Positions 29,560 to 61,218 of a DNA stretch of 64,000 bases are shown here, piece by piece. The stretch covers positions 177,766-241,765 of the forward strand of contig JAUQPR010000001.1 in assembly GCA_030550275.1 (NCBI GenBank). Reading direction: 5' to 3'. A model generated the notes under the pieces. That model was not told the origin of the DNA. It was given only the letters and a program-made list of their open reading frames with translations, and did no database searches. Each line of letters begins with the position of its first letter. The stretch's first letter is position 1. Made by a program: the position numbers and the translations under genes. Origin of the DNA: Bacteroidota bacterium (GTDB lineage Bacteria; Bacteroidota; Ignavibacteria; Kapaibacteriales; HRBIN21).

Positions 29560-30450
29560 TCAACCGGTTGCGCCCAGAGCTGGATTGCCGCAACGGCGCC
29601 CCAGCATAGCCAAGCGCTCGCAGAAGCGCTCCAGCTCCTGCGCCGAGATCCCAAAGCGCCCGAAGTTCCACTCATCGTAAGGGCGTGTGCCATGGTAATC
29701 CGACCCTCCGCTGACGAGCCATCGGTGCTGCCGGGCAAGCAGCCCATAGTAGGAGCGCAGCACGCTGCCATGCTGCGGATGGTAGACCTCAACGCCATCG
29801 AAGCCACGGCGGAGCAGCTCCAGCAGCAATCGCGGGTTCTGGAAGGCGCGACCAGGATGCGCCAGAATTGCCACCCCACCGGTGGCATGGATAAGCTCCA
29901 GCGCCCGCACAACTGGGAACTCCTCCGGCGGCTCGTACGCCGGGCGCCCCGGCTCCAGGTAGCGCGCAAAGGCTTCCGCAAGGCTTTGGCAGTATCCACG
30001 CCGGAGAAGCGCTGCCGCCAAATGTGGGCGTCCAACGACTGCTCCAGGGGCTTCTTCGGTTGCCTCCTCCAGCGTCACCATGAGTCCAAGCCGGCGGCAG
30101 CGCTGGACCATGCGCTCCAGCCGACGCCACCGGCGCTCGCGTGCCCGCTCCATATGCTCCCGCACCCGCCGATGGGCAACGTCAATGCCATATCCCAGGA
30201 CATGAAGCTCGCGCCCGGCTTCGTAGCAGCTCACCTCGATGCCGCTCACCAACTCAATGCCCAATTGCCGAGCCAGTGCGCTGGCGGCTTCGTACCCCTC
30301 GACCGTATCGTGGTCTGTGAAGGCAATGCAGCACAGCCCCCGTTGGGCAGCCTTCTGCAGCAGCTCCTCCGGAGAGAGCGCCCCATCGGAGCAGCGCGTA
30401 TGCAGGTGCAGATCCGCCACCGGTGGGCTCAGTGTGCCGGCTGCGTCCAT
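29560..30450 (-). CDS. PHP-domain phosphoesterase (TrpH/YciV-like)
   Basis: N-terminal DLHLHTRCSDGALSPEELL and IAFTDHDT motifs, later His/Asp ligands (ILAHPG, GGSDYHG). Confidence 0.75.
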   Translation of the reverse strand: MDAAGTLSPPVADLHLHTRCSDGALSPEELLQKAAQRGLCCIAFTDHDTVEGYEAASALARQLGIELVSGIEVSCYEAGRELHVLGYGIDVAHRRVREHMERARERRWRRLERMVQRCRRLGLMVTLEEATEEAPGAVVGRPHLAAALLRRGYCQSLAEAFARYLEPGRPAYEPPEEFPVVRALELIHATGGVAILAHPGRAFQNPRLLLELLRRGFDGVEVYHPQHGSVLRSYYGLLARQHRWLVSGGSDYHGTRPYDEWNFGRFGISAQELERFCERLAMLGRRCGNPALGATG

Positions 30451-32165
30451 GGCTCCTCCTGCAGTGCCCGCAGCAGTTCCGCAACCTTGTCAACCGCCTC
30501 GGCGAGCGCCACGTGATGGCGTCGCCCACTGCGCCGCTCTTTGAGCTCGACGGTGCCGGCTTCCAGCCCGCGCGCGCTCACGATGAGCTGCAACGGCAAT
30601 CCCAACAGGTCGGCATCGTTGAACTTGACCCCGGCGCTCTCCTCCCGGTCATCGTAGAGCACCTCCACGCCTGCTGCCCAGAGGCTGGAGTAGAGCTCAT
30701 CGGAGTGCTGGCGAACGGCATCCGAGCGCTCAATCCCCAAGGCAAGCAGGTGGACGTGGTAGGGCGCGATGGCGGGAATCCAGCAGATGCCGTGTTCGTC
30801 GTGGTTCTGCTCGATGAAGGCAGCGATGATACGCTCGACGCCGATGCCGTAGCTGCCCATGACAATGGGGCGTTCGTGCCCGCGCTCATCCAGAAAGCGC
30901 GCGCCCAGGGCTTCCGAGTACTTCGTCCCCAGCTTAAAGATGTGCCCCACCTCGATTGCACGCACCACCTCCAGCGCCGCACCGCACTCCGGGCACGGCT
31001 CCCCGGGCTGCACCGTGCGGACATCGGCGTAGAGGTCTATGCGGCAATCCCGACGCAGGTCAATGTGCCGGTAGTGGTAGCCATCGGCGTTGGCGCCGCT
31101 GACCAGCTCATTGGCATCGCGCAGCCGCTCATCGGCAATGATGCGCATCGGCGTGGGGAGCCCAATTGGACCGATGGACCCCGCCGAAGCCCCAGTATAC
31201 TGGCGCAGCTCCTCCGGCGTTGCCGGACGCAGCGCAGCTGCCCCCAGCACGGCTTGCAGCTTAGCTTCGTTGAGCTCATCGTTGCCGCGCAGCAGCACCA
31301 GAACCGGCTCCCCATCGGCGATGTAGACGAGCGCCTTTGCGCAGCGCTCCTCCGGGATGCCATGCTGCGTGATGAGGTCGTCAATGGTGCGAACCCCAGG
31401 TGTTGCAAAGCGCTCCAGCGGGGCGCTCTCCGGCAGCCGCGCCGTAGGTTCTACGGCTGAGCGAGCAATCTCCACATTGGCTGCGTAGCCGCATCGGGAG
31501 CACCGGGCGCAGGTATCCTCGCCTGCCGGCGATTCCACCATGAACTCCTGCGAGGCGCTTCCCCCCATTGCACCACTGGAAGCGCCCACGACAAAGAAGC
31601 GCAGTCCACAGCGCGTAAAGATGCGCCGGTACGCCTGCGCGTGCAGCTCGTAGCTGCGGTCCAGCCCCTCCCAATCGGCATCGAGCGAGTAGGAGTCCTT
31701 CATCGTAAACTGCCGTCCACGCAGCACGCCAAAGCGTGGGCGCGGTTCGTTGCGGAACTTGGGCTGGATCTGGTACCAAATCTGCGGCAGCTCCCGGTAG
31801 GAGCGGATGTGCTGCCGCGCATGGAAGGCGACCACCTCCTCGTGCGTGGGCGCCAGCACCAAGCCCTCGCGGTTCTTGATGTGGAAGAGCACATCGCCCA
31901 TGGTTTGGATTCGACCGGTCTGCTGCCAGATCTCGGCAGGGTTGAGCGCAGGGAAATGGAACTCCTGCGCCCCGATGCGGTCCATCTCCTCGCGGATGAT
32001 GCGCATGACCTTCTGCATCACGCGCCATCCCAGGGGCAGGAAGCTATACACACCCGCGGCAAGCTGCCGGATCAACCCCGCCCGGAGCATGAGCTGGTGC
32101 GAGACCGCTTGTGCATCAGCGGGCAGTTGCCGGAGCGTAGGGATAAAGGCACGGCTGTAACGCAT
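30429..32165 (-). CDS. proS: Proline--tRNA ligase (bacterial type with editing domain)
   Basis: MRYSRAFIPTLRQLPADAQAVSHQLMLRAGLIRQLAAGVYSFLPLGWRV... plus class II motifs and the C-terminal anticodon-binding domain. 578 aa. Confidence 0.92.
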   Translation of the reverse strand: MRYSRAFIPTLRQLPADAQAVSHQLMLRAGLIRQLAAGVYSFLPLGWRVMQKVMRIIREEMDRIGAQEFHFPALNPAEIWQQTGRIQTMGDVLFHIKNREGLVLAPTHEEVVAFHARQHIRSYRELPQIWYQIQPKFRNEPRPRFGVLRGRQFTMKDSYSLDADWEGLDRSYELHAQAYRRIFTRCGLRFFVVGASSGAMGGSASQEFMVESPAGEDTCARCSRCGYAANVEIARSAVEPTARLPESAPLERFATPGVRTIDDLITQHGIPEERCAKALVYIADGEPVLVLLRGNDELNEAKLQAVLGAAALRPATPEELRQYTGASAGSIGPIGLPTPMRIIADERLRDANELVSGANADGYHYRHIDLRRDCRIDLYADVRTVQPGEPCPECGAALEVVRAIEVGHIFKLGTKYSEALGARFLDERGHERPIVMGSYGIGVERIIAAFIEQNHDEHGICWIPAIAPYHVHLLALGIERSDAVRQHSDELYSSLWAAGVEVLYDDREESAGVKFNDADLLGLPLQLIVSARGLEAGTVELKERRSGRRHHVALAEAVDKVAELLRALQEEPWTQPAH

Positions 32166-33262
32166 CAACGGTCGCTGTGTGCTGTGGCACCCTCCAGAAT
32201 CTGCACAATTGCCTGCGTGAGCGCAACCTCCGGCGCCAACTCCCCGGTCTTGAGCGCCCGCTCCGCTTGGAACAGAGCCAGCAGTGCCCGCTCAACCCCG
32301 GCAACGCCGAAGCGCCGGAATGCTGCGACGTACTCGGACACAAAGAAGGGGTGAACCCCCAGCGCGCGGGCAAGGGATTCCGCCGGAGCCGAGAGGTCCA
32401 GCTCCGCCACCTTCCACAGCAGCAGGAAGTAGCGCGTCAACACTGCCAGTACACCGGCTTCCTGCCGCTCCACCTGCTGCAGATACTGGGCAATGCGCAG
32501 CGCCTCCTCCCGCTGCCCCAGACCCACTGCCTGCTGCAGCTCAAAGACCGTGTACGCACGCGATGCACCCAGCAGCGGGGCGATGTGTTCAGCATCGAGC
32601 ACCTGGAGTTGCGCCGCCTGGGCAAACAGCGCCAGCTTGCGCAGCTCGTTGTCCAGCTCAAACAGCTCCGTCCCCACCGTTGCCAACAGCAGCTCCAGCG
32701 CCGGCGGGGCAAGCTCGAACCCATAGCGCCGCGTTCGCTGCGCCACCCAATTGACCACTTCGCGTTCGTAGAGCTTGGGGAACTCCACCCAGGCGTGCTG
32801 CTGCAGCAGGAGCCGCCAGGCGCGCGGTGCACGCTCGGAAGCGCTCTTTGCCTTGGTTTGCTGGCGCGGATTGCGTACGGAGCGGCTAATTCCGCGCAAT
32901 GCCTCCGGTGCCGCCGAGGAGAAGAACGCCAATACCGTCGTCTGCACCGGTTCTTGCAGGTAGCTCAGCAGCACCTCCTGCTGTGTGCCCCCTTGCCCCA
33001 ACAGCCGTTCTGCATCGCGAACCACGACAGCACGCCGTTCGGCAAACACCGGGTAGATGCGCGCCCGCTCGACCACTTCACGCGGGGACACCTCCGCTCC
33101 GGAGAGCACATCCACGTTCATGCCCGTTGGGTCCTCCCGCCGCAGCCGCTGGAGGAGGAGCTGGTACGCCTCCTGCAGCAGGAACTGCTCCTCTCCGAAG
33201 AAGAGCAGCACCGGCGGAAGCGTTCCCTGGCTCAGGAGCTGTTCCCAGTGCTCCAGCATCAT
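32165..33262 (-). CDS. holA: DNA polymerase III delta subunit
   Basis: LLFFGEEQFLLQEAYQLLLQRLRRE...VDVLSGAEV...YPVFAERRAVVVRDAERL pattern and length (~365 aa) typical of HolA. Start at MMLEHWEQ (33262), 4-nt overlap with the REC gene stop. Confidence 0.65.
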   Translation of the reverse strand: MMLEHWEQLLSQGTLPPVLLFFGEEQFLLQEAYQLLLQRLRREDPTGMNVDVLSGAEVSPREVVERARIYPVFAERRAVVVRDAERLLGQGGTQQEVLLSYLQEPVQTTVLAFFSSAAPEALRGISRSVRNPRQQTKAKSASERAPRAWRLLLQQHAWVEFPKLYEREVVNWVAQRTRRYGFELAPPALELLLATVGTELFELDNELRKLALFAQAAQLQVLDAEHIAPLLGASRAYTVFELQQAVGLGQREEALRIAQYLQQVERQEAGVLAVLTRYFLLLWKVAELDLSAPAESLARALGVHPFFVSEYVAAFRRFGVAGVERALLALFQAERALKTGELAPEVALTQAIVQILEGATAHSDR

Positions 33263-33684
33263 GGCTGCGGTGTCGGCTGCATCTGTTGGGCAGAATCGCT
33301 CTCGTGCGCACCGAGCAAACGCAAGAGACGTTGCTGCGCCTCCGAGATGGAGAAGGGCTTGATGAGCCAGCCCTGTATCCCCTCGCGTGCAAGCTGGAGC
33401 ACGGCTTCCCGCTCGGCAACTGCAGAGCACACCAGGACGGGGCAGTTCCGTAGCCTCTCCTCCTGGCGCAACTGGCGCAGGAACTCCAACGCCGACCCCT
33501 CCGGAAAGAGCACATCCAGCACGATGACGTCGGGCGGCTCCCGCTGCACAAGCTCCCACGCCTGTTCTGGGGCTGCTGCTTCCACAACCCGCAGCGAGAG
33601 CTGTTCGCCAACATGGCGCCAGATGCGGCGGAAGGTCGGATCGTCATCAATAATCAGCACCGTCCGATGAGGCGCTTCCGTCAT
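33259..33684 (-). CDS. Stand-alone response-regulator receiver (CheY-like, 141 aa)
   Basis: MTEAPHRTVLIIDDDPTFRR...PDVIVLDVLFPEGSALEFLRQLRQ...VLVCSAV...WLIKPF: acidic pocket, phospho-Asp (VLD) and conserved Lys. Start at 33684, 2 nt after the OppC-like stop. Confidence 0.7.
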   Translation of the reverse strand: MTEAPHRTVLIIDDDPTFRRIWRHVGEQLSLRVVEAAAPEQAWELVQREPPDVIVLDVLFPEGSALEFLRQLRQEERLRNCPVLVCSAVAEREAVLQLAREGIQGWLIKPFSISEAQQRLLRLLGAHESDSAQQMQPTPQP

Positions 33685-33686
33685 AG

Positions 33687-34748
33687 CTACACCCGCAGCC
33701 GTGGGTCCAGTAGGTCCCGCAGGGCATCCCCCAGCAGGTTGAATCCCAGCACCGCCAGCGCAATCGCCAAACTGGGGTAGACAGCCAATCCCCACGCCGT
33801 TCCCGTGACGATATAGCCGTAGCCATCGCGCACCATCTGCCCCCACGACGGCATCGGCGGTTGCACGCCCAAGCCCAGGAAGCTCAACCCCGCCTCCGCC
33901 ATCACCGCTGTTGCCAGCCCTGCTGTCGCAATAACCGTCAAGGAGCCAACGACATTGGGCAGCAGATGGCGCAGGATAATGCGCGCCGGACCAAACCCCA
34001 GCGCACGCGCTGCCCAGATGTACTCCCGCTCGCGCAATGCCAGAAACTCCCCACGCACGATGCGCGCGATCTCGACCCAACTGGAGATCCCGATTGCAAG
34101 GGCAGCCTGCTCCAGCCCCTGTCCGATGACGACCGAAAAGGCAATCGCCAACAGCAGCGTCGGATATGCCCACACCACGTTGATGAGCCACATCACCACC
34201 GCATCCACCCATCCCCGAAGGTAGCCCGCCACGGCTCCCAGCACAACCCCAACCACCAGCGCAATCCCTTGCGCCAACACCCCAACGAGCAAGCTCACGC
34301 GTGCCCCGTAGAGCAAGCGGCTGAGCACATCCCGCCCGTATCGGTCGGTCCCCAGCACATAGAGCGGTCGGGCATGCCACTGGGTTGAATCCCGCCCAGC
34401 AAGCTCCTCGCGCCGGAGGCGCAGCGTGCGTCCGGATTCCTCTACGCACACCAGTGTATCCCCTTGCCAGACCATGGACTGCACCGGCACAATGCGCGGC
34501 TGATCGGGGCGAGCTGGATTGTGCACATACACCACGTTGCCGCGGAACATCGGCGCACGCAGCGCGTATTCGAGCACCTGCACCGTGGGGTCCATCGGCG
34601 CCAGCCACTCCGCTCCAATTGCAGCCCCCACCAGCAGGAGCACAATCACTGCCCCGAGCACCCCACTGGGATGGCGCCAGAAGCGCCGCCAGAAGCCCCG
34701 AACCGTAACTGCGTCAGCGGAGCTGGACTCGCGGATCCACGACCGCAT
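33687..34748 (-). CDS. ABC transporter permease, OppC/DppC family
   Basis: EAA-like loop and binding-protein-dependent transport motif (IARIVRGEFLALREREYIWAARALGFGPARIILRHLLPNV), N-terminal oligopeptide-permease region. Start at MRSWIRE (34748), overlapping the OppB-like gene. Confidence 0.8.
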   Translation of the reverse strand: MRSWIRESSSADAVTVRGFWRRFWRHPSGVLGAVIVLLLVGAAIGAEWLAPMDPTVQVLEYALRAPMFRGNVVYVHNPARPDQPRIVPVQSMVWQGDTLVCVEESGRTLRLRREELAGRDSTQWHARPLYVLGTDRYGRDVLSRLLYGARVSLLVGVLAQGIALVVGVVLGAVAGYLRGWVDAVVMWLINVVWAYPTLLLAIAFSVVIGQGLEQAALAIGISSWVEIARIVRGEFLALREREYIWAARALGFGPARIILRHLLPNVVGSLTVIATAGLATAVMAEAGLSFLGLGVQPPMPSWGQMVRDGYGYIVTGTAWGLAVYPSLAIALAVLGFNLLGDALRDLLDPRLRV

Positions 34749-35640
34749 AGAGCACGTCCACAATTGCGTTGACCACCACGAAGACCACCGCCGCAAAGAG
34801 CACCGTCCCCTGGATGAGCGGGTAATCCAGCTTCTCAATTGCTGCAATCGCCACGCTGCCGATGCCGGGCCAGTTGAAGATGTACTCCACGAAGAAGGCA
34901 CCCGCCAGCAGCCCGGCAAACCAGGCGCTCACCGTTGTCACGACCGGATTGAGCGCATTTCGCAGCGCATGGCGCAGCAGGACTCTCCCCGTGGGCACTC
35001 CCTTTGCCAGCGCCGTGCGGATATACTCCTGCCCCAGCACCTCCAGCATGCTGCTGCGCGTCATGCGGGCAATGATGGACATCGGGCGGAGCGCCAAGGT
35101 CAACATCGGCAGCACCAGGTACTCCCAGCCCTGGTCAATGTAGCCTGCGATCGGGAACCAGCCCAGGACCACTCCAAAGAGCAGCAGCACCAGCAAGCCA
35201 GCAACAAAGGAGGGCACAGAGATCCCCACCAGCGCCAGCAACATCAGCAGCGTATCCAGCCACGAATTCGGTCGCACGGCAGCAAGCACGCCCAGGAGCA
35301 CTCCCAGCACCGTTGCCAGGAGCATCGAGCTCACCGTCAGGAGCGCCGTTGCAGGGAAGCGCTCCAGGATGATCTCCAGCACCGGGCGGTTCGTCACATA
35401 CGAGCGTCCCAAGTCCCCCTGTAGCAACCGCCCCAGGAAACGCACGTATTGCACGGGCAGTGGCTGGTCCAGCCCCAGCTGCTGCCGAATCGCTGCAATG
35501 GTCTCTGCATCCGCCCGCTGCCCTGCCAGCAAGCGTGCTGGGTCCCCCGGCAGTACGAAGTTCAGCACGAAGGTGACCGTCGCAACCCCGAAGAGCACTC
35601 CGAGCGCTGCCGCCCCTCTGCGGGCAATATACGCCAGCAT
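34714..35640 (-). CDS. ABC transporter permease, OppB/DppB family
   Basis: MLAYIARRGAAALGVLFGVATVTFVLNFVLPGDPARLLAG... is the typical OppB N-terminus; six TM helices; LPMLTLALRPMSIIARMTRSSMLEVLGQEYIRTALAKG. Confidence 0.85.
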   Translation of the reverse strand: MLAYIARRGAAALGVLFGVATVTFVLNFVLPGDPARLLAGQRADAETIAAIRQQLGLDQPLPVQYVRFLGRLLQGDLGRSYVTNRPVLEIILERFPATALLTVSSMLLATVLGVLLGVLAAVRPNSWLDTLLMLLALVGISVPSFVAGLLVLLLFGVVLGWFPIAGYIDQGWEYLVLPMLTLALRPMSIIARMTRSSMLEVLGQEYIRTALAKGVPTGRVLLRHALRNALNPVVTTVSAWFAGLLAGAFFVEYIFNWPGIGSVAIAAIEKLDYPLIQGTVLFAAVVFVVVNAIVDVLYAVVDPRVQLR

Positions 35641-36525
35641 CTACACCCACACCAGCAGTTTGTGCGGAATCTCGCCCAACTCCGCAAAGCGGACCAGGAC
35701 GGGCAGCATCGCGCTGGTCAACCGCTCCCCTTGCGCAATGACCAGCAAGCCGTACGGGGTGTAGTAGTTCTCCGCCACCACCATCCCCTCGCGCAGCTGA
35801 TTGACCGCAACCGCCTGCAGGAGGCGTTGCCCCAGCGCGCGCCGCTCCTCCTCGACGAGCTCGATAAAGGTGCGCACCACCGCCGGATGGTACACACTGC
35901 CGGCTTTCTCCTCCAAGTGCCGCAACACCTGGATGTAGCGCTGCTGCTCCTCCGGCGAAGGGACCGGCGCCGTTGGCGCCGCATGGCGATAGCGTGCCTC
36001 GCGCCGCCGTCGGTACAAGGCGTTATGGAAGACGTCCACCACTGCGATGATTGCCGCCCCTATGTGGATCTGCCGTCCGCGCAAGTGGCGCGGGAATCCG
36101 GAGCCATCCAACCGCTCGTGGTGCTGCAAGACGATCTCGGCAACAGTCTGCAAGCCGGAATGCTTACGCAAGATGTGCCACCCCAGCTCCGGATGGCGCT
36201 CGTAGAGATGCCGCTCCTCGGCGGTCATCTCCGTGGGGAACTTCTGCAGCAGCGCGTCGGGATAGCCAATCTTGCCAATATCGTGCAGGAGTCCCGCCAC
36301 CTGGATCTCGAACACCTCGACCTCGCTCAACCCCAGCCGGCGGGCAACCTCTGCGGCTTTGTATCCGATGAAGCGGCAATGGCTCCCTTCGTAGAAGCGC
36401 TCCACCGCCGCAACCAGGGTACTGAGCAGCTCCACGGTCTGCATGAAGCTCTCGGCAAGCTGCGTTTCGAGCTGCCGAAGCTGTTGCTCCAGCTCATGCA
36501 CCAACAGGGAGGACATGCTCGGCAA
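35641..36525 (-). CDS. HD-GYP domain phosphodiesterase (c-di-GMP signalling)
   Basis: HD motif AGLLHDIGKIGYPDALL and HHERLDGSGFP (the HD-GYP signature with GFP in place of GYP). Stop/start abut the OppB-like gene. Confidence 0.8.
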   Translation of the reverse strand: MPSMSSLLVHELEQQLRQLETQLAESFMQTVELLSTLVAAVERFYEGSHCRFIGYKAAEVARRLGLSEVEVFEIQVAGLLHDIGKIGYPDALLQKFPTEMTAEERHLYERHPELGWHILRKHSGLQTVAEIVLQHHERLDGSGFPRHLRGRQIHIGAAIIAVVDVFHNALYRRRREARYRHAAPTAPVPSPEEQQRYIQVLRHLEEKAGSVYHPAVVRTFIELVEEERRALGQRLLQAVAVNQLREGMVVAENYYTPYGLLVIAQGERLTSAMLPVLVRFAELGEIPHKLLVWV

Positions 36526-37294
36526 TGCGCACCTGTTGGACGGCTACAGAGCCCAAGCGCAACGCCTGCAGCATCTGCTCCAGCGCCGGCGTTGGGGCAT
36601 CGGTCAACAGGAGCTCCAGCGTACTCGCCCGCGCACCATCTGCCGCAACCCAGCCGTGGCGTTGTAGCCAGTGCACCAATGCCACTCCAGAATCCACAAA
36701 CCGTGTCTCCGGAAGCACTCGGGCAAGCACGGGCAGCAGCAGCGGGTAGTGTGTGCAGCCCAAAATGAGCGTATCCACCCCGTGCAGCGGTTGAAGGTAC
36801 TCGCGCGCCACTAGCTCCGTCACCGGATGCTCGCACCACCCCTCCTCCACCAGCGGCACAAAGAGCGGACATGCCTGCGAGGATACCCGCCGTGCTCCCC
36901 GCTCCTTGAGCAAGCGCTCGTACACACCGCTGCCAATGGTCGCCCGCGTACCGATGACCCCGATATGTCCCGTCTGCGTCTGCTCCAGCGCCGCAGCCAC
37001 CGCTGGGGTGACGACCTCGGCAACAGGGAGCTCGCCCGCAGCTTCACGCACAGCGTCCAATGCAACCGCCGAGACCGTATTGCACGCAACGACAAGCAGG
37101 TCCACACCCTGCCGCACCAAGTAGCTGACGCACTCGAAAGCGTAGCGGCGCACCGTCTGCGTCGCCCGATTCCCGTAGGGGACCCGCGCGGTATCGGCAA
37201 GGTAGACAATCTCCGCACCCAGCCGCAGAAGCTGGCGCACGACGGTCAGCCCTCCCACTCCGGAATCGAAAACTCCAATCCGCAACCGTGCCAT
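36494..37294 (-). CDS. murI: Glutamate racemase
   Basis: IGVFDSGVGGLTVV, catalytic Cys motifs LVVACNTVSA and ILGCTHYPLL. 266 aa. Confidence 0.9.
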   Translation of the reverse strand: MARLRIGVFDSGVGGLTVVRQLLRLGAEIVYLADTARVPYGNRATQTVRRYAFECVSYLVRQGVDLLVVACNTVSAVALDAVREAAGELPVAEVVTPAVAAALEQTQTGHIGVIGTRATIGSGVYERLLKERGARRVSSQACPLFVPLVEEGWCEHPVTELVAREYLQPLHGVDTLILGCTHYPLLLPVLARVLPETRFVDSGVALVHWLQRHGWVAADGARASTLELLLTDAPTPALEQMLQALRLGSVAVQQVRIAEHVLPVGA

Positions 37295-37336: not shown

Positions 37337-38671
37337 CTACTGCCGGCGCAACCGCACCGCAAACGCTCCATCGCAGTGTGCATGCCGATGCGGCAGGGTC
37401 TGCAGCATCCCATCGCGGCAGACCACCTCGGGAAGCCACTGCGTTGCCGGCTCTACGGTAAATTCCGGATGCTCCCGCAGGAAGCGCTCCACCTGTTGCT
37501 CGTTCTCCTCCGGCTCGATCGTGCAGGTGCTGTAGAGCAGCACACCTCCGGGGCGCACCAGGCGAGCGGCGTTCTGCAGAATCTCCCACTGGAGCTGCAC
37601 CAGTGCGGAGATGTCCTCTTCACGGCGATGCCACTTGATATCGGGCTTTTTAGCGATAGTACCCAGCCCCGAACAGGGCACATCCGCCAGCACACAGTCC
37701 GCCGGGGCAAGCGACACCGTCCGCGCATCGGCAACGTGGAAGCGCATGGGCGCCGCCACGCCCAATCGGCGCGCCTCCTGCTCGACCAAGCGCAGCCGCC
37801 CGGGATGGACATCCACGACCTCCAGGACCCCTTCGCCGCCCAGCCGCTCGGCAAGAGCACAGCTTTTGCCGCCCGGCGCAGCACACAAATCAATGACGCG
37901 CATGCCCGGCTGTACATCGGCAAGCTGCACGATGAGCACGGCACTGACATCCTGAACGCTTGCCCACCCGCGCTGCAGCACCTCCTGGAGCTGCTCATGG
38001 AGCAACTGCTCTGCAACGATGCACTGTGCGCAGTACGGCGAAATCCCCGCCGTTGCCCCTTTGGCTGTCAGCCAGCGGAGCAACTCCTCCGGCGAGCTCC
38101 GCTGCGGGTTGACCCGAAGTGTTGTGGGCGGTCGCTGGTTCTGCGCCTGCATCAGGGCAATAGCTTCCTCGCATCCGAAGCGCCTGCACCAGCGCCGCGC
38201 GATCCAATCCGGATAGGAGTACCATGTGGCGATATCCGCGCCCAGCGCCTCCGGTTGCAACTCCTTGCCCGCGTACTCCCGGAGCGCCTGCCGCAGCACG
38301 GCGTTGACCAACCTGGCTGCCCCCGTCCCCAACGGTTTGACCAGCTCGACCATCTGATGCACAACCGCGTACGGCGGAATCCGCTCCAGAAACAGGAGCT
38401 GATAGACCCCCATGGCAAGCGCCACCCGCAGCGGCAGCGGGTAGTAGCGCAATTCATTCTGCAGCAGCCGCTGCAGCAGGAACTCCAATCGCCGCTTCCA
38501 GCGCAGGACGCCATGGAGCAGCTCCGTCAGCAGCGCTCGCTCCCGCTCCTCCAACCGATGGCGACGGAGTGTGCTCTCCAGGAGGCGGTCAGCATATGCT
38601 CGGTCGCGCTCAATCCGAAGCAGCAGCTCCCAGGCAATCCGCCGTGCCGGAGAAACCGCCGGTGCATTCAT
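37337..38671 (-). CDS. rsmB: 16S rRNA (cytosine967-C5)-methyltransferase RsmB/Sun family
   Basis: N-terminal NusB-like domain (ARRIAWELLLRIERDRAYADRLLE); SAM-binding VIDLCAAPGGKSCALAE; catalytic Cys motifs (DVPCSGLG, LLYSTCTIEPEENE). Start at MNAPAVS (38671). Confidence 0.85.
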   Translation of the reverse strand: MNAPAVSPARRIAWELLLRIERDRAYADRLLESTLRRHRLEERERALLTELLHGVLRWKRRLEFLLQRLLQNELRYYPLPLRVALAMGVYQLLFLERIPPYAVVHQMVELVKPLGTGAARLVNAVLRQALREYAGKELQPEALGADIATWYSYPDWIARRWCRRFGCEEAIALMQAQNQRPPTTLRVNPQRSSPEELLRWLTAKGATAGISPYCAQCIVAEQLLHEQLQEVLQRGWASVQDVSAVLIVQLADVQPGMRVIDLCAAPGGKSCALAERLGGEGVLEVVDVHPGRLRLVEQEARRLGVAAPMRFHVADARTVSLAPADCVLADVPCSGLGTIAKKPDIKWHRREEDISALVQLQWEILQNAARLVRPGGVLLYSTCTIEPEENEQQVERFLREHPEFTVEPATQWLPEVVCRDGMLQTLPHRHAHCDGAFAVRLRRQ

Positions 38672-49776: not shown

Positions 49777-50685
49777 TTACGTTCCCTGCCCGGCGATGGC
49801 GCGGTCGAACTGCTCGTAGTCGGCGTAGCCAATCAGGGCGTAGAGCTCCGCTCTGCTCTGCATGCGCGGGAGATACTCCTGCGTCGAGCCGCTGCGCCGG
49901 AGGTGCTCGTAGAACTCCTGCATCGCACGGGCAGCAACCCGGAGCGCCGATACCGGGAAGAGCACCATTTCATAGCCTACGGCGAAGAGCTCCTCTGCCC
50001 TCAGCGGCGGAGTTTTGCCAAACTCGGTCAGATTTGCCAGCAGGGGTATCCCGGGAAGCGCCTGGCGGAAGGCGCGAAACTCCTCCAGCGAATGCAGCGC
50101 TTCCGGGAAGATGGCGTCAGCACCGGCGGCAACGTACTGCCGTGCCCGCTCGACTGCACCCTCCAGCCCTTCGATAGCGCGGGCATCCGTGCGGGCAATC
50201 AGGACCAACTGCGGCAGGAGCCGCTTGAGTGCCCGCACCTTCTGGACCATCGCCTCCGCCGGCAGCAGGCGCTTCCCCTCCAGATGCCCGCACCGCTTGG
50301 GCATCTCCTGGTCCTCCAACTGCACAGCAGCCACACCGGCGCGGACCAGCTCGCGTGCGGCTCGCACGGTGTTGAACAGCTCTCCAAAGCCGGTGTCAAT
50401 GTCTACCAACAAGGGGAGCTGCGTTGCAGCAACGATGGCAGCCGCTCGGCGGGCAACCTCCTCTGGCGTGAGCATCCCCACATCGGGCAAGCCCAGACTC
50501 GCCGAAAACGCAGCTCCCGAAAGGTAGAGCACCGAAAATCCCGCCTGCTTCGCCAGCAATCCCGCCAGTGGGTCATGCGCCCCAGGGATGACAAGCCCTC
50601 CGGCGCGCATTGCCGCACGGAAGCGCTCGGCAAGCTGTGCCTGCTCGGCGAAGGGTTCCAGAAGCCACGCCATTGCAATCCTCAC
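49777..50685 (-). CDS. prpB: 2-Methylisocitrate lyase (PEP mutase/isocitrate lyase superfamily)
   Basis: KRCGH catalytic motif (EDQEMPKRCGHLEGKRLL), DIDTGFG, ~300 aa as for PrpB. Co-directional with prpD and prpC. Confidence 0.85.
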   Translation of the reverse strand: MRIAMAWLLEPFAEQAQLAERFRAAMRAGGLVIPGAHDPLAGLLAKQAGFSVLYLSGAAFSASLGLPDVGMLTPEEVARRAAAIVAATQLPLLVDIDTGFGELFNTVRAARELVRAGVAAVQLEDQEMPKRCGHLEGKRLLPAEAMVQKVRALKRLLPQLVLIARTDARAIEGLEGAVERARQYVAAGADAIFPEALHSLEEFRAFRQALPGIPLLANLTEFGKTPPLRAEELFAVGYEMVLFPVSALRVAARAMQEFYEHLRRSGSTQEYLPRMQSRAELYALIGYADYEQFDRAIAGQGT

Positions 50686-52097
50686 GGAAGCGCCAACTCC
50701 TCCAGGAAGCGGTCAACCGGCAGCTCCGGCAAGCCCGCGTCTTCGGCAACCAGGCGGTAGATGCGTTCGGCTTTCCGCTCGGGGTAGACCCGCAGCAGCG
50801 CCGTCCGGAACTTCTCCCGCAGCAGGGGAAGCGCCTCTTGACGCCGCCGCCGATGCCCCAGCGGGAACTCCACTACGACGCGCTCACTCTGGGTGCCATC
50901 GCGGAAGAAGAGCTGCACCGCATTGGCGATGGAGCGCCGCTCCGGGTCCAGGTACGCACGGCTGAATTCGGGGTTCTCCACCACCTCCATCTTCGCGATG
51001 AGCTCAGGGATGCGCGGGTCGGAGGCGATAGGCTCCAGGTAGTGCTCGTAGCGCAGCTCGCCGTAGAGCAGCGCCACTGCCGTCATGTACTGCAGGGAAT
51101 GGTCGCGATCGGCGGGATTGCGGAAGGGTCCGGGCTTATCGATGATGCGCACGGCGGACTCTTGGGTCTCAATCCGAATGCGCTCAAGCTCGCCCAGCCG
51201 CTCGCGCACCAACGGGTGCAAGCGGAGAGCGGCTTCGACGGCGGTCTGCCCGTGAAATTCCGCCGGATATGCGACCTTGAAGAGCACATTCTCCATGACG
51301 TAGCTGCCCAGCGGGCGCTCCAGCCGGAGTGGTTCTCCGCCGAGCACCACCGCTTCAAATCCCCAGACGGGCGCCGTCGCCGCAGTGGGGTATCCGGGTT
51401 CGCCGCGCAATGCCAGGAGGGCAAACCAGAGCCCGCGGCTGGTGGCATCGGCAGCTGCCCAAGACTTCCGCGGTCCCGTGTTGGGGAAGTGCCGGTACGT
51501 CCGCAGCGGCGCACCGTCAATGAGCGCATTAGAGAGAGCGCTGAGCACCTCCTCGCGCCCTCCGCCCAGGAGCCACGTTGCCACCGCTGCCGATGCCAGC
51601 TTGACGAAGTGCACATGGTCGAACCCCCGGCGGTTGAGGCTCACCCCCAACGCCAACACGCCCTGGATCTCGTACGCCTTGATGGCAGCCGTCAACACAT
51701 CGGCAACGCGGTAGGGCGCCTCTCCCCAGCGCCGACGACGCCGGCTTGCGTACTCCGCCGCCGCAAGGATTGCCCCAAAGTTGTCCGACGGATGCCCCCA
51801 CTCCCGCGCAAGCCAGGTGTCGTTGTAATCCAACCAGCGGATGAGCGCCGTGATGGCGAATGCCCCGTGAAGGGGATCTGCCACGTACGGCGTTGCGGGC
51901 ACATGGACCCCATCGGGAACGGCAGCAGAGCAGATGGGCGGGAGCAGCTTCGTGCATTCGGGATGCTCCGTTGCCGCAGCCGCACACGCCAGGGAGTCCA
52001 TCAAAGCGATGCGCGCGGTCTGGTACGCCTCCTCGCTCTCAATGTGCGCGGAGAGAACGTAGTCGGCAATCTCCTGCAGGACCGGATCGTACGCCAT
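50682..52097 (-). CDS. prpD: 2-Methylcitrate dehydratase (MmgE/PrpD family)
   Basis: PrpD-family N-terminus MAYDPVLQEIADYVL...ARIALMDSLACAAAA; 471 aa. 4-nt overlaps on both flanks. Confidence 0.88.
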   Translation of the reverse strand: MAYDPVLQEIADYVLSAHIESEEAYQTARIALMDSLACAAAATEHPECTKLLPPICSAAVPDGVHVPATPYVADPLHGAFAITALIRWLDYNDTWLAREWGHPSDNFGAILAAAEYASRRRRRWGEAPYRVADVLTAAIKAYEIQGVLALGVSLNRRGFDHVHFVKLASAAVATWLLGGGREEVLSALSNALIDGAPLRTYRHFPNTGPRKSWAAADATSRGLWFALLALRGEPGYPTAATAPVWGFEAVVLGGEPLRLERPLGSYVMENVLFKVAYPAEFHGQTAVEAALRLHPLVRERLGELERIRIETQESAVRIIDKPGPFRNPADRDHSLQYMTAVALLYGELRYEHYLEPIASDPRIPELIAKMEVVENPEFSRAYLDPERRSIANAVQLFFRDGTQSERVVVEFPLGHRRRRQEALPLLREKFRTALLRVYPERKAERIYRLVAEDAGLPELPVDRFLEELALP

Positions 52098-52100
52098 CGC

Positions 52101-53243
52101 TTATGCCCCGACGCGAAGTCCACGAGGTCCGGTGTACACCACGCGCGGACGGTAGAGCCGATTCTGCGCATGCTGCTCGACGATGTGCGCCAGCAGCCCA
52201 GCCGAGCGGGCAGCAAAGAAGATCGGCGTGTACAGCTCGATGGGGATGTCCAGCAGGTAGTACACGGGAGCGGCGTAGTAGTCCAGGTTTGGGTACAGCC
52301 CCTTCTCCGCGTGCATCACGGCTTCGCCGCGCTCGCACATCTCCAGCAACTCCGCTCCAGTGCCCTTGGCTGCGACGAGCTCGCGCAGGGTCTCCTTGAG
52401 CAACTGCGCCCGCGGGTCCATCCGGCGCATGTAGACGCGATGCCCAAAGCCCATGATGCGCTCCTTGCGGGCGAGCTTCTCACGGATGAGCCGTTCCAAA
52501 GCATCGGCGCTACCCGCCTCCAGGAGCATGTACATCACCGCCTCGTTTGCACCGCCGTGCAGTGGTCCCTTCAGCGATGCCACTGCCGCGGTCAACGCGC
52601 CGTAGGCATCTGCCAGAGTGGAGGCAACCACGCGCGCGGCAAAGGTGGAGTTCGGCAGCTCGTGCTCGCTGTAGGCGATCAAGGCTTGGTCGAAGGCACG
52701 GACTTCGGCTGCCGAAACCTCGCGGGCAACGATGGTGTGCAGGAAGTTCTCTGCAAAGCTGCGCTGTGGGTCGAACGGTATGGGCGGCTGCCCGCCAGCA
52801 ATGCGGGTGAGGTTTGCCACGATTTGGGCAATCTGCCCGATGAGCCGAGGCGCTTTGCGGCGCTCCTCCTCTGGATCGGCACTGTTGGCGTTGGGATCGA
52901 ATCCCGCCAGCGCCGAAACCGCCGTCCGGAGCCGGTCCATTGCGTGCATGGCTGGCGGCAGTAGCGCAAGAATCTCGTAAACTCGCTGCGGGACCTCTGC
53001 CGTGCACAGCTCCCGTTCGAGCTGCTGGCGCCGCTGTGCATCGGGGAGCTGCTCATCCAGCAAGAGCCCTACGACGTCAACATAGCCGACCGTGCGGATG
53101 AGCTCCAGGAGGTTGTACCCGCGCACAACGATCTCCTCCTGCTCCGTGTCCAGAAAGGAGATGCGCGTCTCGGCTGCAATAACCCCCTCCAATCCGGGGC
53201 TGTAGGATGCAGACTGCATACGCACCGCCGTGAGAGGTTGCAC
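52101..53243 (-). CDS. prpC: 2-Methylcitrate synthase / short-type citrate synthase
   Basis: Citrate synthase family motifs (GFGHRVY, catalytic His/Asp regions); 380 aa is the short PrpC-type length; adjacent to prpD and prpB. Confidence 0.82.
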   Translation of the reverse strand: MQPLTAVRMQSASYSPGLEGVIAAETRISFLDTEQEEIVVRGYNLLELIRTVGYVDVVGLLLDEQLPDAQRRQQLERELCTAEVPQRVYEILALLPPAMHAMDRLRTAVSALAGFDPNANSADPEEERRKAPRLIGQIAQIVANLTRIAGGQPPIPFDPQRSFAENFLHTIVAREVSAAEVRAFDQALIAYSEHELPNSTFAARVVASTLADAYGALTAAVASLKGPLHGGANEAVMYMLLEAGSADALERLIREKLARKERIMGFGHRVYMRRMDPRAQLLKETLRELVAAKGTGAELLEMCERGEAVMHAEKGLYPNLDYYAAPVYYLLDIPIELYTPIFFAARSAGLLAHIVEQHAQNRLYRPRVVYTGPRGLRVGA

Positions 53244-53275: not shown

Positions 53276-54559
53276 TCAGTGCCCTTGGGAATCCGCCTCC
53301 GGCTCGATGAAGACATTGCGGTAGGCTTCCTCCGGCGGCGGATACGGGCGCGCGAGCACCTCTTCAACTGCCGCGCGGAGCTGCTCCCGGATCTGCTGGC
53401 GCAACTGCTCGATCTGCTGCGCCGTCAACACCCCGTGGCGTTGGAGCAACTGCTCGTAGCGCTGCAGCGGATCGCGCGCTTCCCAGTAGCGCCGGATCGG
53501 CTCAGGGACGTATCCAGCGTCATCATGCTCGGCATGCCCGCGGACACGGAAGGTGATGGTCTCCAGCAGCGTAGGACCCTCTCCGGCGCGGGCACGTTCG
53601 ACAGCGCGGCGGCAGGCATCGTAGACCAGCTCCACATCCGTTCCGTCCACGACCTCCCCGAAGCAGCCGTAGCCCAGGGCACGGTCGGCGAGGAATTCGC
53701 AGGCGTACTCCAGTTGGTTGGGCGTGGAGTAGGCGTACTGGTTGTTCTCGATGACGACCACCACGGGCAAGCGCTGGACAGCTGCGAAGTTGACCGCTTC
53801 GTGGAATTCGCCCGTCTGGGCACCACCATCGCCGATGTAGGTGAGCACGACCGTATCCTCGCCGCGCAGTCGTGCCGCCAGAGCGTAGCCCACAGCCACC
53901 GGCAGCATCGCCCCCAGATGCGAGATGTTGCCGTAGATGCGCCGCGCGGGATCGGCGTAGTGAACTGTGCCATCGGTGCCCCGGGTCAGGCTCCCCTGAC
54001 GGGCAAAGTGGGTTGCCAGCAGCGCCTTCAGGTCCTGTCCCCGCACAAAGTGGGCGCCAATATCGCGGTGCATCGGGAAGATGGGATCGGTGGGGCGCAG
54101 CGCATACGCCGTGCCAACGGCGGTGGCTTCGTTGCCGATCTGGGCAAACACCCCTCCGAAGACTCGCCCCTGCCGATAGAGGCGGATGAGCGCCAGGTCG
54201 AACTCCCGCGCCCAGATCATGCACTCCAGCAGGAAGCGGCGCTGAACATCCGACAGTGCAGGGCTTCTCCAGGGCTCCTTCACTGGGGCTTCCACATCCG
54301 GCTGCTGTGGGGAGGGGCGCCATCCCTGAGGCGGACGCTTCGGAATGCCCAGCACCGCATCGCGCAACGCCCGAGCCGCCTCCTGCGGAAAGGCGCGCAG
54401 AAGCCGCTCCACCGGAAGCATCCCTTCAGCAATCCAGCGCTCCAGTTCCTGTTCGGAGCTCCCCAATCGTGCAGCGAGCTCGGCGCGGGAACATCCGCAC
54501 TCGTTCTGCAATCGCTCCAGCAGTAGCTCCCACAGTTGTGCTGCGTGCATGGCTCTCAC
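53276..54559 (-). CDS. TPP-dependent 2-oxoacid dehydrogenase E1 alpha subunit with an N-terminal ~100-aa XRE-type HTH extension
   Basis: E1-alpha core from about aa 102 ([44 protein letters not shown]...[36 protein letters not shown]...[10 protein letters not shown]). The N-terminal region contains [24 protein letters not shown] (Cro/C1-like HTH). Start codon is 3 nt from the hslU stop. No E1-beta or E2 nearby. Confidence 0.8.
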
Positions 54560-55947
54560 AGGATGTACTTGCTCACATCCACCTGGCGTACGATGGCGCT
54601 GAGCCGCCGGCGAACGTATTCGGCATCAATCCGGACATGGCGCTCCGGCAAGATATCCGGCGCTTGGAAGAGCAGCTCCTCCAGCAGCGTTGTCAGGATC
54701 GTGTGCAGCCGCCGTGCTCCGATATTGGCAATCTCCTCATTGACGCGCGCCGCCATTGCAGCAATCTCCCGAATGGCGTCCTCGGTGAACTCCAGCTCCA
54801 CGCCCTCGGTCGCCAGCAGCGCCTGATACTGCTTGATGAGCGCGTTCTCCGGCAGGGTCAAAATCCGCACGAAATCCTCCTCCGTCAGGCTGTGCAGCTC
54901 CACTCGAATGGGGAAGCGCCCCTGCAGCTCCGGGATGAGGTCTGAGGGCTTTGCAACATGGAATGCCCCCGAGGCGATGAAGAGGATGTGGTCCGTGCGG
55001 ACCGGACCGTACTTGGTCATCACCGTTGTGCCCTCCACGATGGGGAGCAGGTCGCGCTGGACCCCCTCGCGCGAGACATCCGGTCCGACGTGGGTCCCGC
55101 CCGTGGAGGCGATTTTGTCGATCTCGTCGATGAAGACGATGCCGAGATTCTCGGCGCGGAAGATCGCTTCGCGCACGACGCTATCCATGTCAATGAGCTT
55201 ATCGGCTTCCTCCTGCTCCAGGAGCGCGCGGGCTTCGGCAACGGTCATCTTGCGCTTCTTGTAGCGCTTGGGGGCAAACTGTGCGAGCATCTCCTGGAGC
55301 ATATTCAGCTCGCCAGGTGCCATCGGACCGAACATCTGCTGCAGGAAGGGCACGCTGTCCTTGACGTCCAGCTCGATCACGCGGTCCTCCAGCTTGCCCT
55401 CCTGGAGGAGGCGCTGCATGTGCTCCCGTGCCCGCTGCTGCTCCTCCACCGCCTCTGGGCTGAGCGCTTCGAATGCCAATCCAGGATGGCGCATCGGGGG
55501 AACCAGGATGTCCAACAGCCGTTGCTCGGCAGCCTTGCGGGCTTGGCGGCGCACCTGCTCGATCTTCTCGGCGCGCACCATCGCAACGGCAACGTCTACA
55601 AGGTCGCGGATCATGGACTCAACATCGCGCCCGACGTAGCCGACCTCAGTGAACTTGGTCGCCTCCACCTTGACAAAGGGAGCGTGAGCAAGCTTTGCCA
55701 GGCGGCGCGCGATCTCGGTTTTGCCCACACCGGTTGGACCGATGAGGATGATGTTGTTGGGCATAATCTCCTCGCGCAGGCTGCCCTGAACCCGCTGGCG
55801 ACGCCAGCGGTTGCGCAAGGCGATGGCAACAGCGCGCTTGGCTTCGTGCTGTCCGATGATGTACTTGTCCAGCTCCTGCACAATCTGCTGCGGTGTGAGC
55901 TCCTGTATCCGCCGGAGCAGCTCCTCGCTTGCCTCGGTGTGCTGCAT
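54556..55947 (-). CDS. hslU: ATP-dependent protease ATPase subunit HslU
   Basis: [26 protein letters not shown], Walker [29 protein letters not shown] (Walker B), sensor motifs. 463 aa. Confidence 0.95.
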
Positions 55948-55950
55948 GGC

Positions 55951-56499
55951 TCAGAGCTCCTCGATTGTGAACGCGTCGTTGGTGTAGATGCAAATGCCAC
56001 TGGCGATGCGCAGGGACTCCTCAACGATCTCGCGCGCCGAGAGCTCCGTATGGCGCATCAGCGCCCGCGCTGCCGCCAGGGCAAATCCGCCTCCGGAGCC
56101 AATCGCGATGACCTGGTCATCGGGCTCGACTACCTCGCCCGTCCCGCTGACAAGCAGCACCTGCGAGGTATTCATCACAATGAGCATCGCCTCCAGGTGG
56201 CGGAGGTAGCGGTCGGTACGCCACTCCTTTGCCAACTCAATTGCAGCCCGAAGCAGGTGTCCACGAGTGCTCTCCAGCTTCTCCTCGAAGCGCCCGAGCA
56301 GGGTCATCGCATCCGCAACACTGCCGGCAAACCCCGCCAGGATGCTCTCATTGTACAGCCGCCGTACCTTGCGCGCATGCTGCTTGAGCACGGTGTTGTT
56401 GAAGGTCACCTGCCCATCCGCTCCTAATGCAGCTCTGCCGTTGCGGATGACCCCGATGACCGTTGTACTGTGGAACTCGCACGCCTTTGCGTCCGACAC
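55951..56499 (-). CDS. hslV: ATP-dependent protease subunit HslV (start codon uncertain)
   Basis: [22 protein letters not shown]...[24 protein letters not shown]...[17 protein letters not shown]...[12 protein letters not shown] aligns end to end with E. coli HslV. There is no ATG directly before the catalytic Thr-Thr; the nearest in-frame start is GTG at 56497-56499 (11-aa leader). The track ORF reads through upstream to 57801 as an artifact. Confidence 0.85.
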
Positions 56500-58512: not shown

Positions 58513-58574
58513 CTTGCGGCTTTTTGCTAAGTTTGCGTCAGTCCAGGCTGGTCTCATCATTGTGGGGGAACGCT

Positions 58575-59702
58575 ATGCAGGTCTTCACAGCACAGCAGCA
58601 ACAGGAGTTCGCCGTCGAACCGCTGCCAATTCGCCGAATCCATCACATCGAGTTGTACGTGGGCAATGCCCGGCAGGCGTCCTACTTCTACCGGCGGGCG
58701 TTTGGGTTTGAGCTCATCGGCTTTGCCGGACCCGAAACCGGCGTTCGGGAAACCGCTTCGTACGTGCTGCGCCAGAACAAAATCACCTTCGTCGTCACCG
58801 CGCCGGTCTTCTCCGACCATCCCATCATGGACTGGCTGGTCAAGCACGGGGACGGCGTGCGCGATGTCGCCTTTGAGGTTGATGACGCCGAATTCTGCTA
58901 CCGCAAAGCCGTCGAGCGCGGCGCCCGGGGCGTGCGCGAACCCTACACGCTGGAGGATGAATACGGCAAAGTTGTGCTCGCCTCGATTGCCACGTACGGG
59001 GACGTGATCCACACCTTCGTGCAGCGCGATGGGTACGAGGGCTTCTTCCTGCCCCCCTACAAAGCAACCCCGAAGGACGAGCTCGCCAAGCCCATTGGAC
59101 TCAAGCACATCGACCACGTCGTCGGCAACGTCGGCTGGAACCAGATGGCGGAAACCGTCGCCTTCTACAACCGCGTCTTCGGGTTCCAGCGCTTCGTCTC
59201 CTTCGACGACAAGGACATTTCGACGGAGTATTCGGCGCTGCGCTCCACCGTCGTTGCCAACGAGAACAAGTGGATCAAGTTCCCCATCAACGAGCCCGCC
59301 GAAGGGAAGCGGCGCTCGCAGATTGAGGAGTTCGTGCTCTACAACAACGGTCCAGGCGTGCAACACATCGCGCTGGAGTGCGAGAACATCGTGCATACGG
59401 TTCGCCAGCTCAAAGCCAATGGCGTTGAACTGCTGCATACCCCGACGACCTACTACGACATGCTGGAGGAGCGCGTCGGCAAGATCGACGAGGACCTCGA
59501 CTCGCTGCGCGAGCTGGGCATCCTGGTTGACCGCGATGACAAGGGCTACATGCTGCAGATCTTCACCCGCCCTGTCCAGGACCGCCCCACGCTCTTCTAC
59601 GAGCTCATCCAGCGCAAGGGTGCCGAATCCTTTGGCAAAGGCAACTTCCGAGCCCTCTTCGAGGCAATCGAGCGCGAGCAAGCCCTGCGCGGCAACCTCT
59701 AA
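58575..59702 (+). CDS. hppD: 4-Hydroxyphenylpyruvate dioxygenase
   Basis: Two VOC modules with HPPD-typical sequence (IHHIELYVGNARQASYFY, IDHVVGNVGWNQM, EFVLYNNGPGVQHIALE, GYMLQIFTRPVQDRPTLFYELIQR...FGKGNFRALFEAIEREQ). Start at MQVFTAQ (58575). Confidence 0.9.
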   Translation: MQVFTAQQQQEFAVEPLPIRRIHHIELYVGNARQASYFYRRAFGFELIGFAGPETGVRETASYVLRQNKITFVVTAPVFSDHPIMDWLVKHGDGVRDVAFEVDDAEFCYRKAVERGARGVREPYTLEDEYGKVVLASIATYGDVIHTFVQRDGYEGFFLPPYKATPKDELAKPIGLKHIDHVVGNVGWNQMAETVAFYNRVFGFQRFVSFDDKDISTEYSALRSTVVANENKWIKFPINEPAEGKRRSQIEEFVLYNNGPGVQHIALECENIVHTVRQLKANGVELLHTPTTYYDMLEERVGKIDEDLDSLRELGILVDRDDKGYMLQIFTRPVQDRPTLFYELIQRKGAESFGKGNFRALFEAIEREQALRGNL

Positions 59703-59754
59703 CGGGGGTTGCCGCCAGGGCAATATGTCCCACTAACTCCCTGCATGCTCACCG

Positions 59755-61215: not shown

Positions 61216-61218
61216 TGC

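Follow-up and report, generated by a model that had tools for sequence, protein, structure and literature searches.

We analysed a 64,000-nucleotide stretch (the window; positions 177,766 to 241,765 of the forward strand of contig JAUQPR010000001.1, assembly GCA_030550275.1) from a Bacteroidota bacterium placed in the Kapaibacteriales, and within it a tightly packed minus-strand gene run that contains a pair of genes for OppB- and OppC-type permeases. In the direction of transcription, the run comprises rsmB (about 37337-38671), murI for glutamate racemase (36494-37294; Pfam Asp_Glu_race, 9.6e-22), a gene for a predicted HD-GYP-type phosphodiesterase of 291 aa that lacks a receiver (REC) domain (35641-36516; HD_5, 1.9e-31, and HD, 1.4e-19), oppB (34714-35640, 308 aa; BPD_transp_1 (PF00528), 4e-41, and BPD_transp_1_N (PF19300), 1.6e-21), oppC (33687-34748, 353 aa; PF00528, 3.1e-29, and OppC_N (PF12911), 2.3e-11), a gene for a stand-alone receiver of 141 aa (33259-33684; Response_reg, 9.3e-22, and no other domain), holA for DNA polymerase III delta (32165-33262; DNA_pol3_delta_C, 1.2e-16, and DNA_pol3_delta, 8.6e-09), the prolyl-tRNA synthetase gene proS (30429-32168; tRNA-synt_2b, tRNA_edit and HGTP_anticodon) and a PHP-domain gene (29560-30450). 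An earlier sequence-only reading had listed this run from murI to proS, and the open reading frames (ORFs), the Pfam matches and a separate set of gene calls, made on contigs with an identical OppB and agreeing in gene boundaries, bear it out.

The gene for the HD-GYP protein overlaps murI by 23 nt and abuts oppB with a 0-nt spacer, oppB and oppC overlap by 35 nt, oppC is separated from the receiver gene by 2 nt, the receiver gene overlaps holA by 4 nt, and holA in turn overlaps proS. The earlier description of the packing (0-4 nt spacers or overlaps) was right in kind, with two overlaps longer than stated, and its upper boundary at 36525 corresponds to an upstream TTG, the HD-GYP gene itself reaching only to 36516. 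Because the genes overlap or are separated by 0-4 nt only, the HD-GYP gene, oppBC and the receiver gene are very probably co-transcribed. Terminator-like sites in the run (8, as against 5.9 +/- 2.3 in shuffled sequence) are not in excess, and a promoter scan covering the sigma-70 consensus only, and no other promoter type, gave counts at the level of shuffled sequence.

Both permeases are encoded by intact ORFs and are full-length, covering the whole of their Pfam models. The AlphaFold2 (AF2) model of OppC (predicted local distance difference test score, pLDDT, 85; predicted template modelling score, pTM, 0.80) finds its best Foldseek match in Escherichia coli DppC (8z1w_B; E 4e-18, target TM-score 0.90), and thus has the six-helix fold of type-I importers. 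The coupling (EAA) loops are intact in both proteins, reading EYIRTALAKG...LRHALRNAL between transmembrane helices 4 and 5 (TM4-TM5) of OppB and EYIWAARALG...LRHLLPNV in OppC, where the loop is the most conserved part of the protein (E242, A246, G251, R256, H261, L263, P264 and N265 are invariant in a 17-sequence family alignment). According to the paper on the DppBCDF structure, in which the EAA motif is defined, the coupling helix of DppB contacts DppD via the residues RTA (PMC12136057), and the same RTA is found in the EYIRTALAKG of OppB.

Neither permease reaches any of the NCBIfam equivalog cut-offs for Opp, Dpp, Nik, Gsi, Sap or Yej components; the top scores, all sub-cut-off, are 311 bits for Opp2B (cut-off 350) and 303 for GsiC (463), which are the best models for OppB, and 269 for Opp4C (350). 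The pair therefore represents a separate subfamily which, on sequence comparison, is confined to the Fibrobacteres-Chlorobi-Bacteroidetes (FCB) group and comprises members from Ignavibacteria, Kapabacteria, Chlorobi and Bacteroidota. Among named organisms, the closest relatives are labelled "Chlorobiota bacterium", "Candidatus Kapabacteria" and "bacterium HR21". Between the window and HR21, OppB and ProS show the same identity, 83%. OppB is 58-66% identical to the proteins of other Kapabacteria and Chlorobiota, 64% to that of Ignavibacteriae and 63% to that of Chloroherpeton thalassium, and the sequences indicate that the permeases are under strong purifying selection. An identical OppB occurs in the metagenome-assembled genome (MAG) GCA_053500655.1 and on many JGI metagenome contigs (146 index blocks).

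The OppC proteins of this family differ from all others that we compared by an insert, which in the window protein occupies residues ~68-128 (34365-34547, minus strand), lies between TM1 and the motif GTDRYGRD and is predicted to form an SH3/Sm-like beta-barrel. The insert occupies the same position, between TM1 and GTDxxGRD, in all OppCs of the family, and the loop is 77-147 residues long in every one in which it could be measured, as against 18-29 residues in ~45 OppCs from other phyla. An alignment of OppC to E. coli DppC omits residues 69-126 of the former, and AF2 models the insert as a small beta-barrel with a pLDDT of ~90 both within the full protein and alone. Since the TM1-TM2 region is periplasmic in DppB and DppC (PMC12136057), the barrel should, by analogy, face the binding protein. 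It appears to be both undescribed and lineage-defining.

The sequence-only reading had pointed out that the two permeases are the sole transporter components of the run, and this extends to the whole 64 kb: no ORF in the window combines a Walker A motif with LSGGQ, and hidden Markov models of OppD/F ATPases and of family-5 substrate-binding proteins (SBPs), built from other loci, have no match there. To place this in context, we compared ~30 non-redundant loci of the family from FCB lineages (identified below by L numbers). OppC is solitary in 20 of these ~30 lineages, namely 17 Bacteroidota, L053 (labelled Janthinobacterium), one Chlorobiaceae and the Ignavibacteria L008/L014, whereas in other phyla oppC mostly lies next to oppB and, in many loci, is accompanied by a family-5 SBP gene and/or two ATPase genes as well. 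Conversely, Chloroherpeton thalassium (L092) has a solitary oppB between nifU and meaB.

Binding-protein genes are linked to the permeases in some Ignavibacteria, in the order SBP_bac_5 (5.3e-92)-NlpC/P60-oppB-oppC in L015 and SBP-oppB-oppC in L023. A third arrangement, rplW-SBP-NlpC/P60-oppB, is found in the Ignavibacteria loci L096-L098, which are of the type with oppC elsewhere (L097 and the solitary-oppC locus L009 share one metagenome), and both the SBP and the NlpC/P60 protein carry lipoprotein signal peptides. The gene rplW, for ribosomal protein L23, is normally succeeded by rplB and the other genes of the S10 operon for ribosomal proteins; in these loci the SBP-NlpC/P60-oppB trio comes directly after it (L096, 10001-13432; L097, 3770-7201; L098, 10001-13354, with a sigma-70 gene intervening in the last), and the trio is followed by genes for metalloproteases with a type IX secretion system tail (Por_Secre_tail). 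An exhaustive search for the SBP retrieved further full-length relatives at 54% identity in a Chlorobiota MAG, 40% in Chloroherpetonaceae and 39% in Bacteroidota, and these orthologues (L102-L105) stand alone among housekeeping genes. As the SBP gene, oppB and oppC can thus each be solitary, "orphan" permeases are the norm for this family.

ATPase genes were sought through the synteny of oppC, oppB and the SBP gene, and none was adjacent in ~40 loci. Several candidates were considered and rejected: the ABC ATPases near L012 (13197-13877), L026 and L027 (5252-6073) are 226-273 aa long and LolD-like or generic by NCBIfam, not OppD/F; a 955-aa protein of L020 with two ATPase domains is, from its size and domain count, probably UvrA; and a 632-aa protein of L105 (ABC_tran_Xtn, ABC_tran_CTD) is an ABC-F protein. 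The conserved coupling loops of both permeases nonetheless imply partner ATPases, which would then be encoded elsewhere in the genome. We consider it probable, overall, that the genes for the SBP, for each permease and for the ATPases are habitually unlinked in this family and lie scattered among housekeeping genes.

The HD-GYP protein has the HD and HHERLDGSGFP motifs, with GFP replacing GYP and DVFHNAL replacing the usual DxFDAL, and is related to cyclic-dinucleotide phosphodiesterases, of which it is predicted to be one. Its match to NCBIfam NF053512 (response-regulator c-di-GMP phosphodiesterase; c-di-GMP, cyclic di-GMP) is limited to profile positions 159-421 of 422, and because the match starts only at position 159, the protein lacks the N-terminal REC of that family; accordingly, no Pfam match to Response_reg is found in its 291 aa. 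A C-terminal region of ~110 aa, in which Pfam recognises no domain, also occurs in the NF053512 family. In the stand-alone receiver the REC domain spans residues 9-119 of 141 and no output domain follows, making it a CheY-like single-domain response regulator; its translation contains the full phospho-acceptor set, that is, an acidic pocket (DDD13-15), the Asp (VLDV), the Ser (CSA) and the Lys (IKP).

Both flanking genes are present together only in the window, in bacterium HR21 (L101) and in a Kapaibacterium (L013; murI-HD-GYP-oppB-oppC-REC-holA-proS). In HR21 their conservation is not specific, because an entire 13-kb housekeeping block is syntenic with the window (OmpA/PD40-hypothetical-rsmB-murI-HD-GYP-oppB-oppC-REC-holA-proS-PHP-PAP2-MBL). 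A single flank is present in L007 (murI-HD-GYP-oppB-oppC-holA, without REC) and in the Chlorobiota locus L012 (oppB-oppC-double REC-holA, without HD-GYP), and both are absent from Ignavibacteriae (L093-95; murI-oppB-oppC-holA). Neither gene was found at L093-95, L010, L015, L016, L008, L092 or at 18 solitary-oppC loci (17 from Bacteroidota and one from Chlorobiaceae). The murI-oppB-oppC-holA arrangement is thus a conserved core, common to the organism of the window and to one Ignavibacteriae lineage, and the HD-GYP and REC genes are lineage-restricted and lie in an arrangement that exists without them elsewhere, each being dispensable alone.

Where the HD-GYP gene is present, its product is 75% (L101), 49% (L013) and 50% (L007) identical to the window protein; the gene is absent from loci L012, L093, L010 and L015. 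The receiver is 53% identical in HR21, 30% in L013 and 25% in L012, and its gene is absent from loci L007 and L093. The L012 protein at the oppC-holA junction (11044-11847) is of a different build, with two receiver domains in 267 aa and no output domain. Given identities of 25-30% and the double REC of L012, we rejected the receiver genes at this junction as orthologous proof of a conserved module.

Other surroundings of the permease genes vary with lineage. In Ignavibacteria, L010 and L016 have the order NlpC/P60-oppB-oppC-dprA-rpoN-hslVU (L015 differs 3' of oppC), and the solitary oppC genes of L008, L009 and L014 adjoin dprA-rpoN-hslVU. The window also has hslU-hslV (54556-56480), 20 kb from oppC; in Ignavibacteria hslVU is only a few genes from oppC. 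The solitary oppC genes of the 17 Bacteroidota loci are often preceded by genes for a family-2 glycosyltransferase (GT2), a Wzz-like protein, a Wzy_C/O-antigen-ligase-like protein and a Polysacc_synt flippase (~9 loci; for instance L019, 7900-9965, and L021, 5538-9479), and a divergent ruvC and a gene for a conserved ~320-400-aa protein without Pfam match (cluster c6) recur nearby. Immediately 3' of solitary oppC in eight Bacteroidota loci (L024, 10783-11988, where the two genes overlap, and L027, L031, L032, L037, L042, L045 and L053) is a gene for a PP2C/SpoIIE phosphatase of ~400 aa whose N-terminal half lacks annotation. L053, labelled a Janthinobacterium lividum MAG, carries a solitary FCB-type oppC with the insert (95-aa loop) and, two ORFs 3', a SpoIIE gene of the Bacteroidota type (cluster c3); the contig is probably mis-binned.

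Taken together, these comparisons make it probable that oppB and oppC encode the membrane subunits of a conventional type-I, SBP-dependent importer of the peptide/nickel (Opp/Dpp/Nik/Gsi) family whose partner genes are unlinked, and that the transporter does not depend on the HD-GYP and REC proteins, which look like lineage-specific neighbours. Of the two proposals made from the sequence alone, that of a permease module served by partners elsewhere is accordingly favoured, with an SBP gene linked or solitary in relatives and intact EAA loops on its side. Several observations weigh against this interpretation. The SBP of the window's own organism was not found, in a search covering the 64 kb. 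ATPases of the OppD/F type (ABC_tran plus oligo_HPY) were found for no member of the family, neither in the window nor within 10 kb at ~30 related loci. The tight packing and probable co-transcription mean that a regulatory link between HD-GYP/REC and oppBC may exist, and the SpoIIE gene found 3' of solitary oppC in the eight Bacteroidota loci is a second, independent signalling-gene neighbour of this permease.

A rival reading concerns the two signalling proteins themselves. In an RpfG-like output split over two genes, the phosphorylated receiver would control the REC-less HD-GYP protein, and the two would merely share an operon with the permeases, perhaps tuning how the envelope functions of that operon are expressed or act, without contacting the permeases. 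The HD-GYP match that begins only at position 159 of its profile, the complete set of phospho-acceptor residues in the receiver and the co-occurrence of both genes in the window, HR21 and L013 are all consistent with this. It sits poorly, however, with the HD-GYP gene that occurs without a receiver gene in L007 and the receiver gene that occurs without HD-GYP in L012; the order of the genes, with 2 kb between HD-GYP and REC, is unlike that expected from simple gene fission, the run contains no histidine kinase gene, and at 25-30% identity the receiver genes of the different lineages may not be orthologous. We regard this split output as unlikely.

More improbable still is the signalling-coupled membrane complex that the sequence-only reading had offered as its other proposal, in which OppB/OppC would be a sensor or "trigger transporter" read by REC and HD-GYP via cyclic dinucleotides instead of a nutrient importer. 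It could draw on the contiguity of the four genes with their 0-2-nt spacers, on the retention of this arrangement in HR21 and the Kapaibacterium L013, on the missing REC of the HD-GYP protein relative to its nearest NCBIfam family, which a separate receiver could supply, and on the SpoIIE phosphatase after the solitary oppC of eight Bacteroidota loci. The flanks are, however, missing from most of the family (L007, L012, L093-95, other Ignavibacteria, Chloroherpeton and Bacteroidota) and individually dispensable; their conservation is confined to loci in which the whole housekeeping block is conserved; the receiver is 25-30% identical between lineages where OppB is 58-66% identical; and the EAA loops together with the linked SBP are the architecture of a working importer. 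The proposal therefore finds no support, and comparison of HD-GYP-oppBC-REC synteny across relatives reveals no conserved unit outside the one lineage of the window, HR21 and L013. Of the two observations that had been expected to count against it, flanks that are not conserved and an ordinary opp operon in relatives, the first was made outside this lineage; the relatives, on the other hand, have no ordinary opp operon, dispersal being family-wide. That oppBC is a decaying, non-functional remnant of a broken opp operon, as the lack of ATPase and SBP genes in 64 kb might suggest, is hardly credible for two intact ORFs covering their full Pfam models, with an OppB as conserved as ProS (83% each to HR21), recovered in identical form from contigs of many samples (146 index blocks) and encoded in an architecture that persists across several FCB classes and phyla.

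If oppB and oppC indeed belong to a conventional importer with dispersed genes, its operation can be sketched from the family to which it belongs. A lipoprotein SBP_bac_5 would deliver the substrate to OppB/OppC, the additional periplasmic beta-barrel of OppC would probably aid in docking or in substrate handling, and OppD/F-type ATPases encoded elsewhere would dock on the intact EAA loops and energise import. As to the substrate, an NlpC/P60 lipoprotein endopeptidase and glutamate racemase are the only recurrent neighbours that are functionally related, and peptidoglycan-derived peptides are therefore a tentative candidate. This candidate comes from gene neighbourhood alone, and the different neighbours in Bacteroidota (GT2, Wzz-like, Wzy_C and flippase genes) speak against it. 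A more far-reaching scenario combines these elements: an undescribed FCB Opp-like importer, with scattered genes, an SH3/Sm-like barrel in OppC and a lipoprotein SBP paired with an NlpC/P60 lipoprotein, would serve the salvage of peptidoglycan peptides and, in thermophilic Kapabacteria, would be placed under a split REC/HD-GYP switch operating through cyclic dinucleotides. We think this combination doubtful as a whole; if true, it would link cell-wall turnover to second-messenger signalling in thermophilic Kapabacteria.

The arrangement that first drew attention is thus ordinary in the sense that an orphan permease pair is explained by partners encoded in trans and that its signalling neighbours form no conserved module. 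What the comparison adds is a single, well-conserved Opp/Dpp-like importer common to Ignavibacteria, Kapabacteria, Chlorobi and Bacteroidota, groups usually described as reliant on TonB-dependent uptake. As its components are scattered, operon-based pipelines will score this importer as incomplete. A role in the recycling of cell-wall peptides, suggested by NlpC/P60 and murI, is testable in genetically tractable Bacteroidota. The literature that we searched contains no description of this permease family; what it offers as background concerns MppA/Opp, YkfC/dpp and the structure of DppBCDF. With its family-wide dispersal and its OppC barrel, the family seems to be a hitherto undescribed, if modest, variation on a known type of transporter.

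Three other parts of the window, all on the minus strand, deserve mention. A 1488-aa ORF (5043-9509) has a C-terminal FlgD_ig-like domain as its only Pfam match and probably encodes a large secreted or surface protein. A methylcitrate-cycle-like cluster (49777-53243), with PEP_mutase/methylisocitrate-lyase-like, PrpD and citrate-synthase-like genes, is next to an E1 dehydrogenase gene and to hslU-hslV. For four consecutive long ORFs (58557-63997; 388, 287, 659 and 359 aa), Pfam gives no match at E <= 1e-5.

Compared with known signalling proteins, the HD-GYP protein is similar in sequence (~1e-18) to PmGH (4mcw) and V-cGAP3 (5z7c), with which it shares HD and HHExxDGxG[Y/F]P, and its match to NF053512 continues through the C-terminal end. 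It departs from these and from RpfG-type proteins in the GFP and DVFHNAL motifs. Its putative substrate would be c-di-GMP or cyclic GMP-AMP (cGAMP). Unlike REC-HD-GYP proteins of the RpfG type it has no N-terminal REC, and a receiver-only gene lies further downstream instead, past oppB and oppC.

The permeases have the same Pfam architecture as those of E. coli DppBCDF/OppBCDF and Mycobacterium tuberculosis DppABCD/OppABCD (PDB 8z1v-8z21, 8wd9, 8j5q). OppC aligns to E. coli DppC at 2.6e-57, in line with the target TM-score of 0.90 of its model, OppB shares the RTA coupling motif of DppBCDF, and a family-5 SBP is linked to OppBC in relatives, as in Opp/Dpp. In contrast to Opp/Dpp operons, the genes for the SBP and for each permease are scattered here and no ATPase gene is adjacent, and the extra periplasmic barrel of ~55-120 aa in the TM1-TM2 loop is missing from every solved OppC/DppC chain.

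With respect to cell-wall peptides, E. coli takes up murein peptide through MppA-OppBCDF, in which MppA is likewise an "orphan" SBP working with permeases whose genes lie elsewhere (PMC10622912), and in Bacillus subtilis dppB-E adjoins ykfA-D, which include the gene for the NlpC/P60 gamma-D-Glu-diamino-acid endopeptidase YkfC (PMC2954226). The likeness of the present family to these systems, known here from genes alone, consists in the association of an importer with NlpC/P60 (SBP-NlpC/P60-oppB in Ignavibacteria) and with a D-Glu enzyme (murI). The NlpC/P60 protein of Ignavibacteria differs from YkfC in being a short lipoprotein of ~200-250 aa in which Pfam detects no SH3b domains; moreover, genes for NlpC/P60 and SBP are both lacking from the window, and in Bacteroidota the neighbours are polysaccharide-biogenesis genes.

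The absence of a neighbouring ATPase gene has its closest parallel among the CUT1 sugar importers, in which ATPases encoded in trans are shared (Streptomyces MsiK, Bacillus MsmX) and the SBP and permease genes are kept together. Importers served by MsiK or MsmX likewise have no ATPase gene beside the permeases and intact EAA loops in the latter, and the family described here goes one step further, its permeases and SBP being separated from each other as well.

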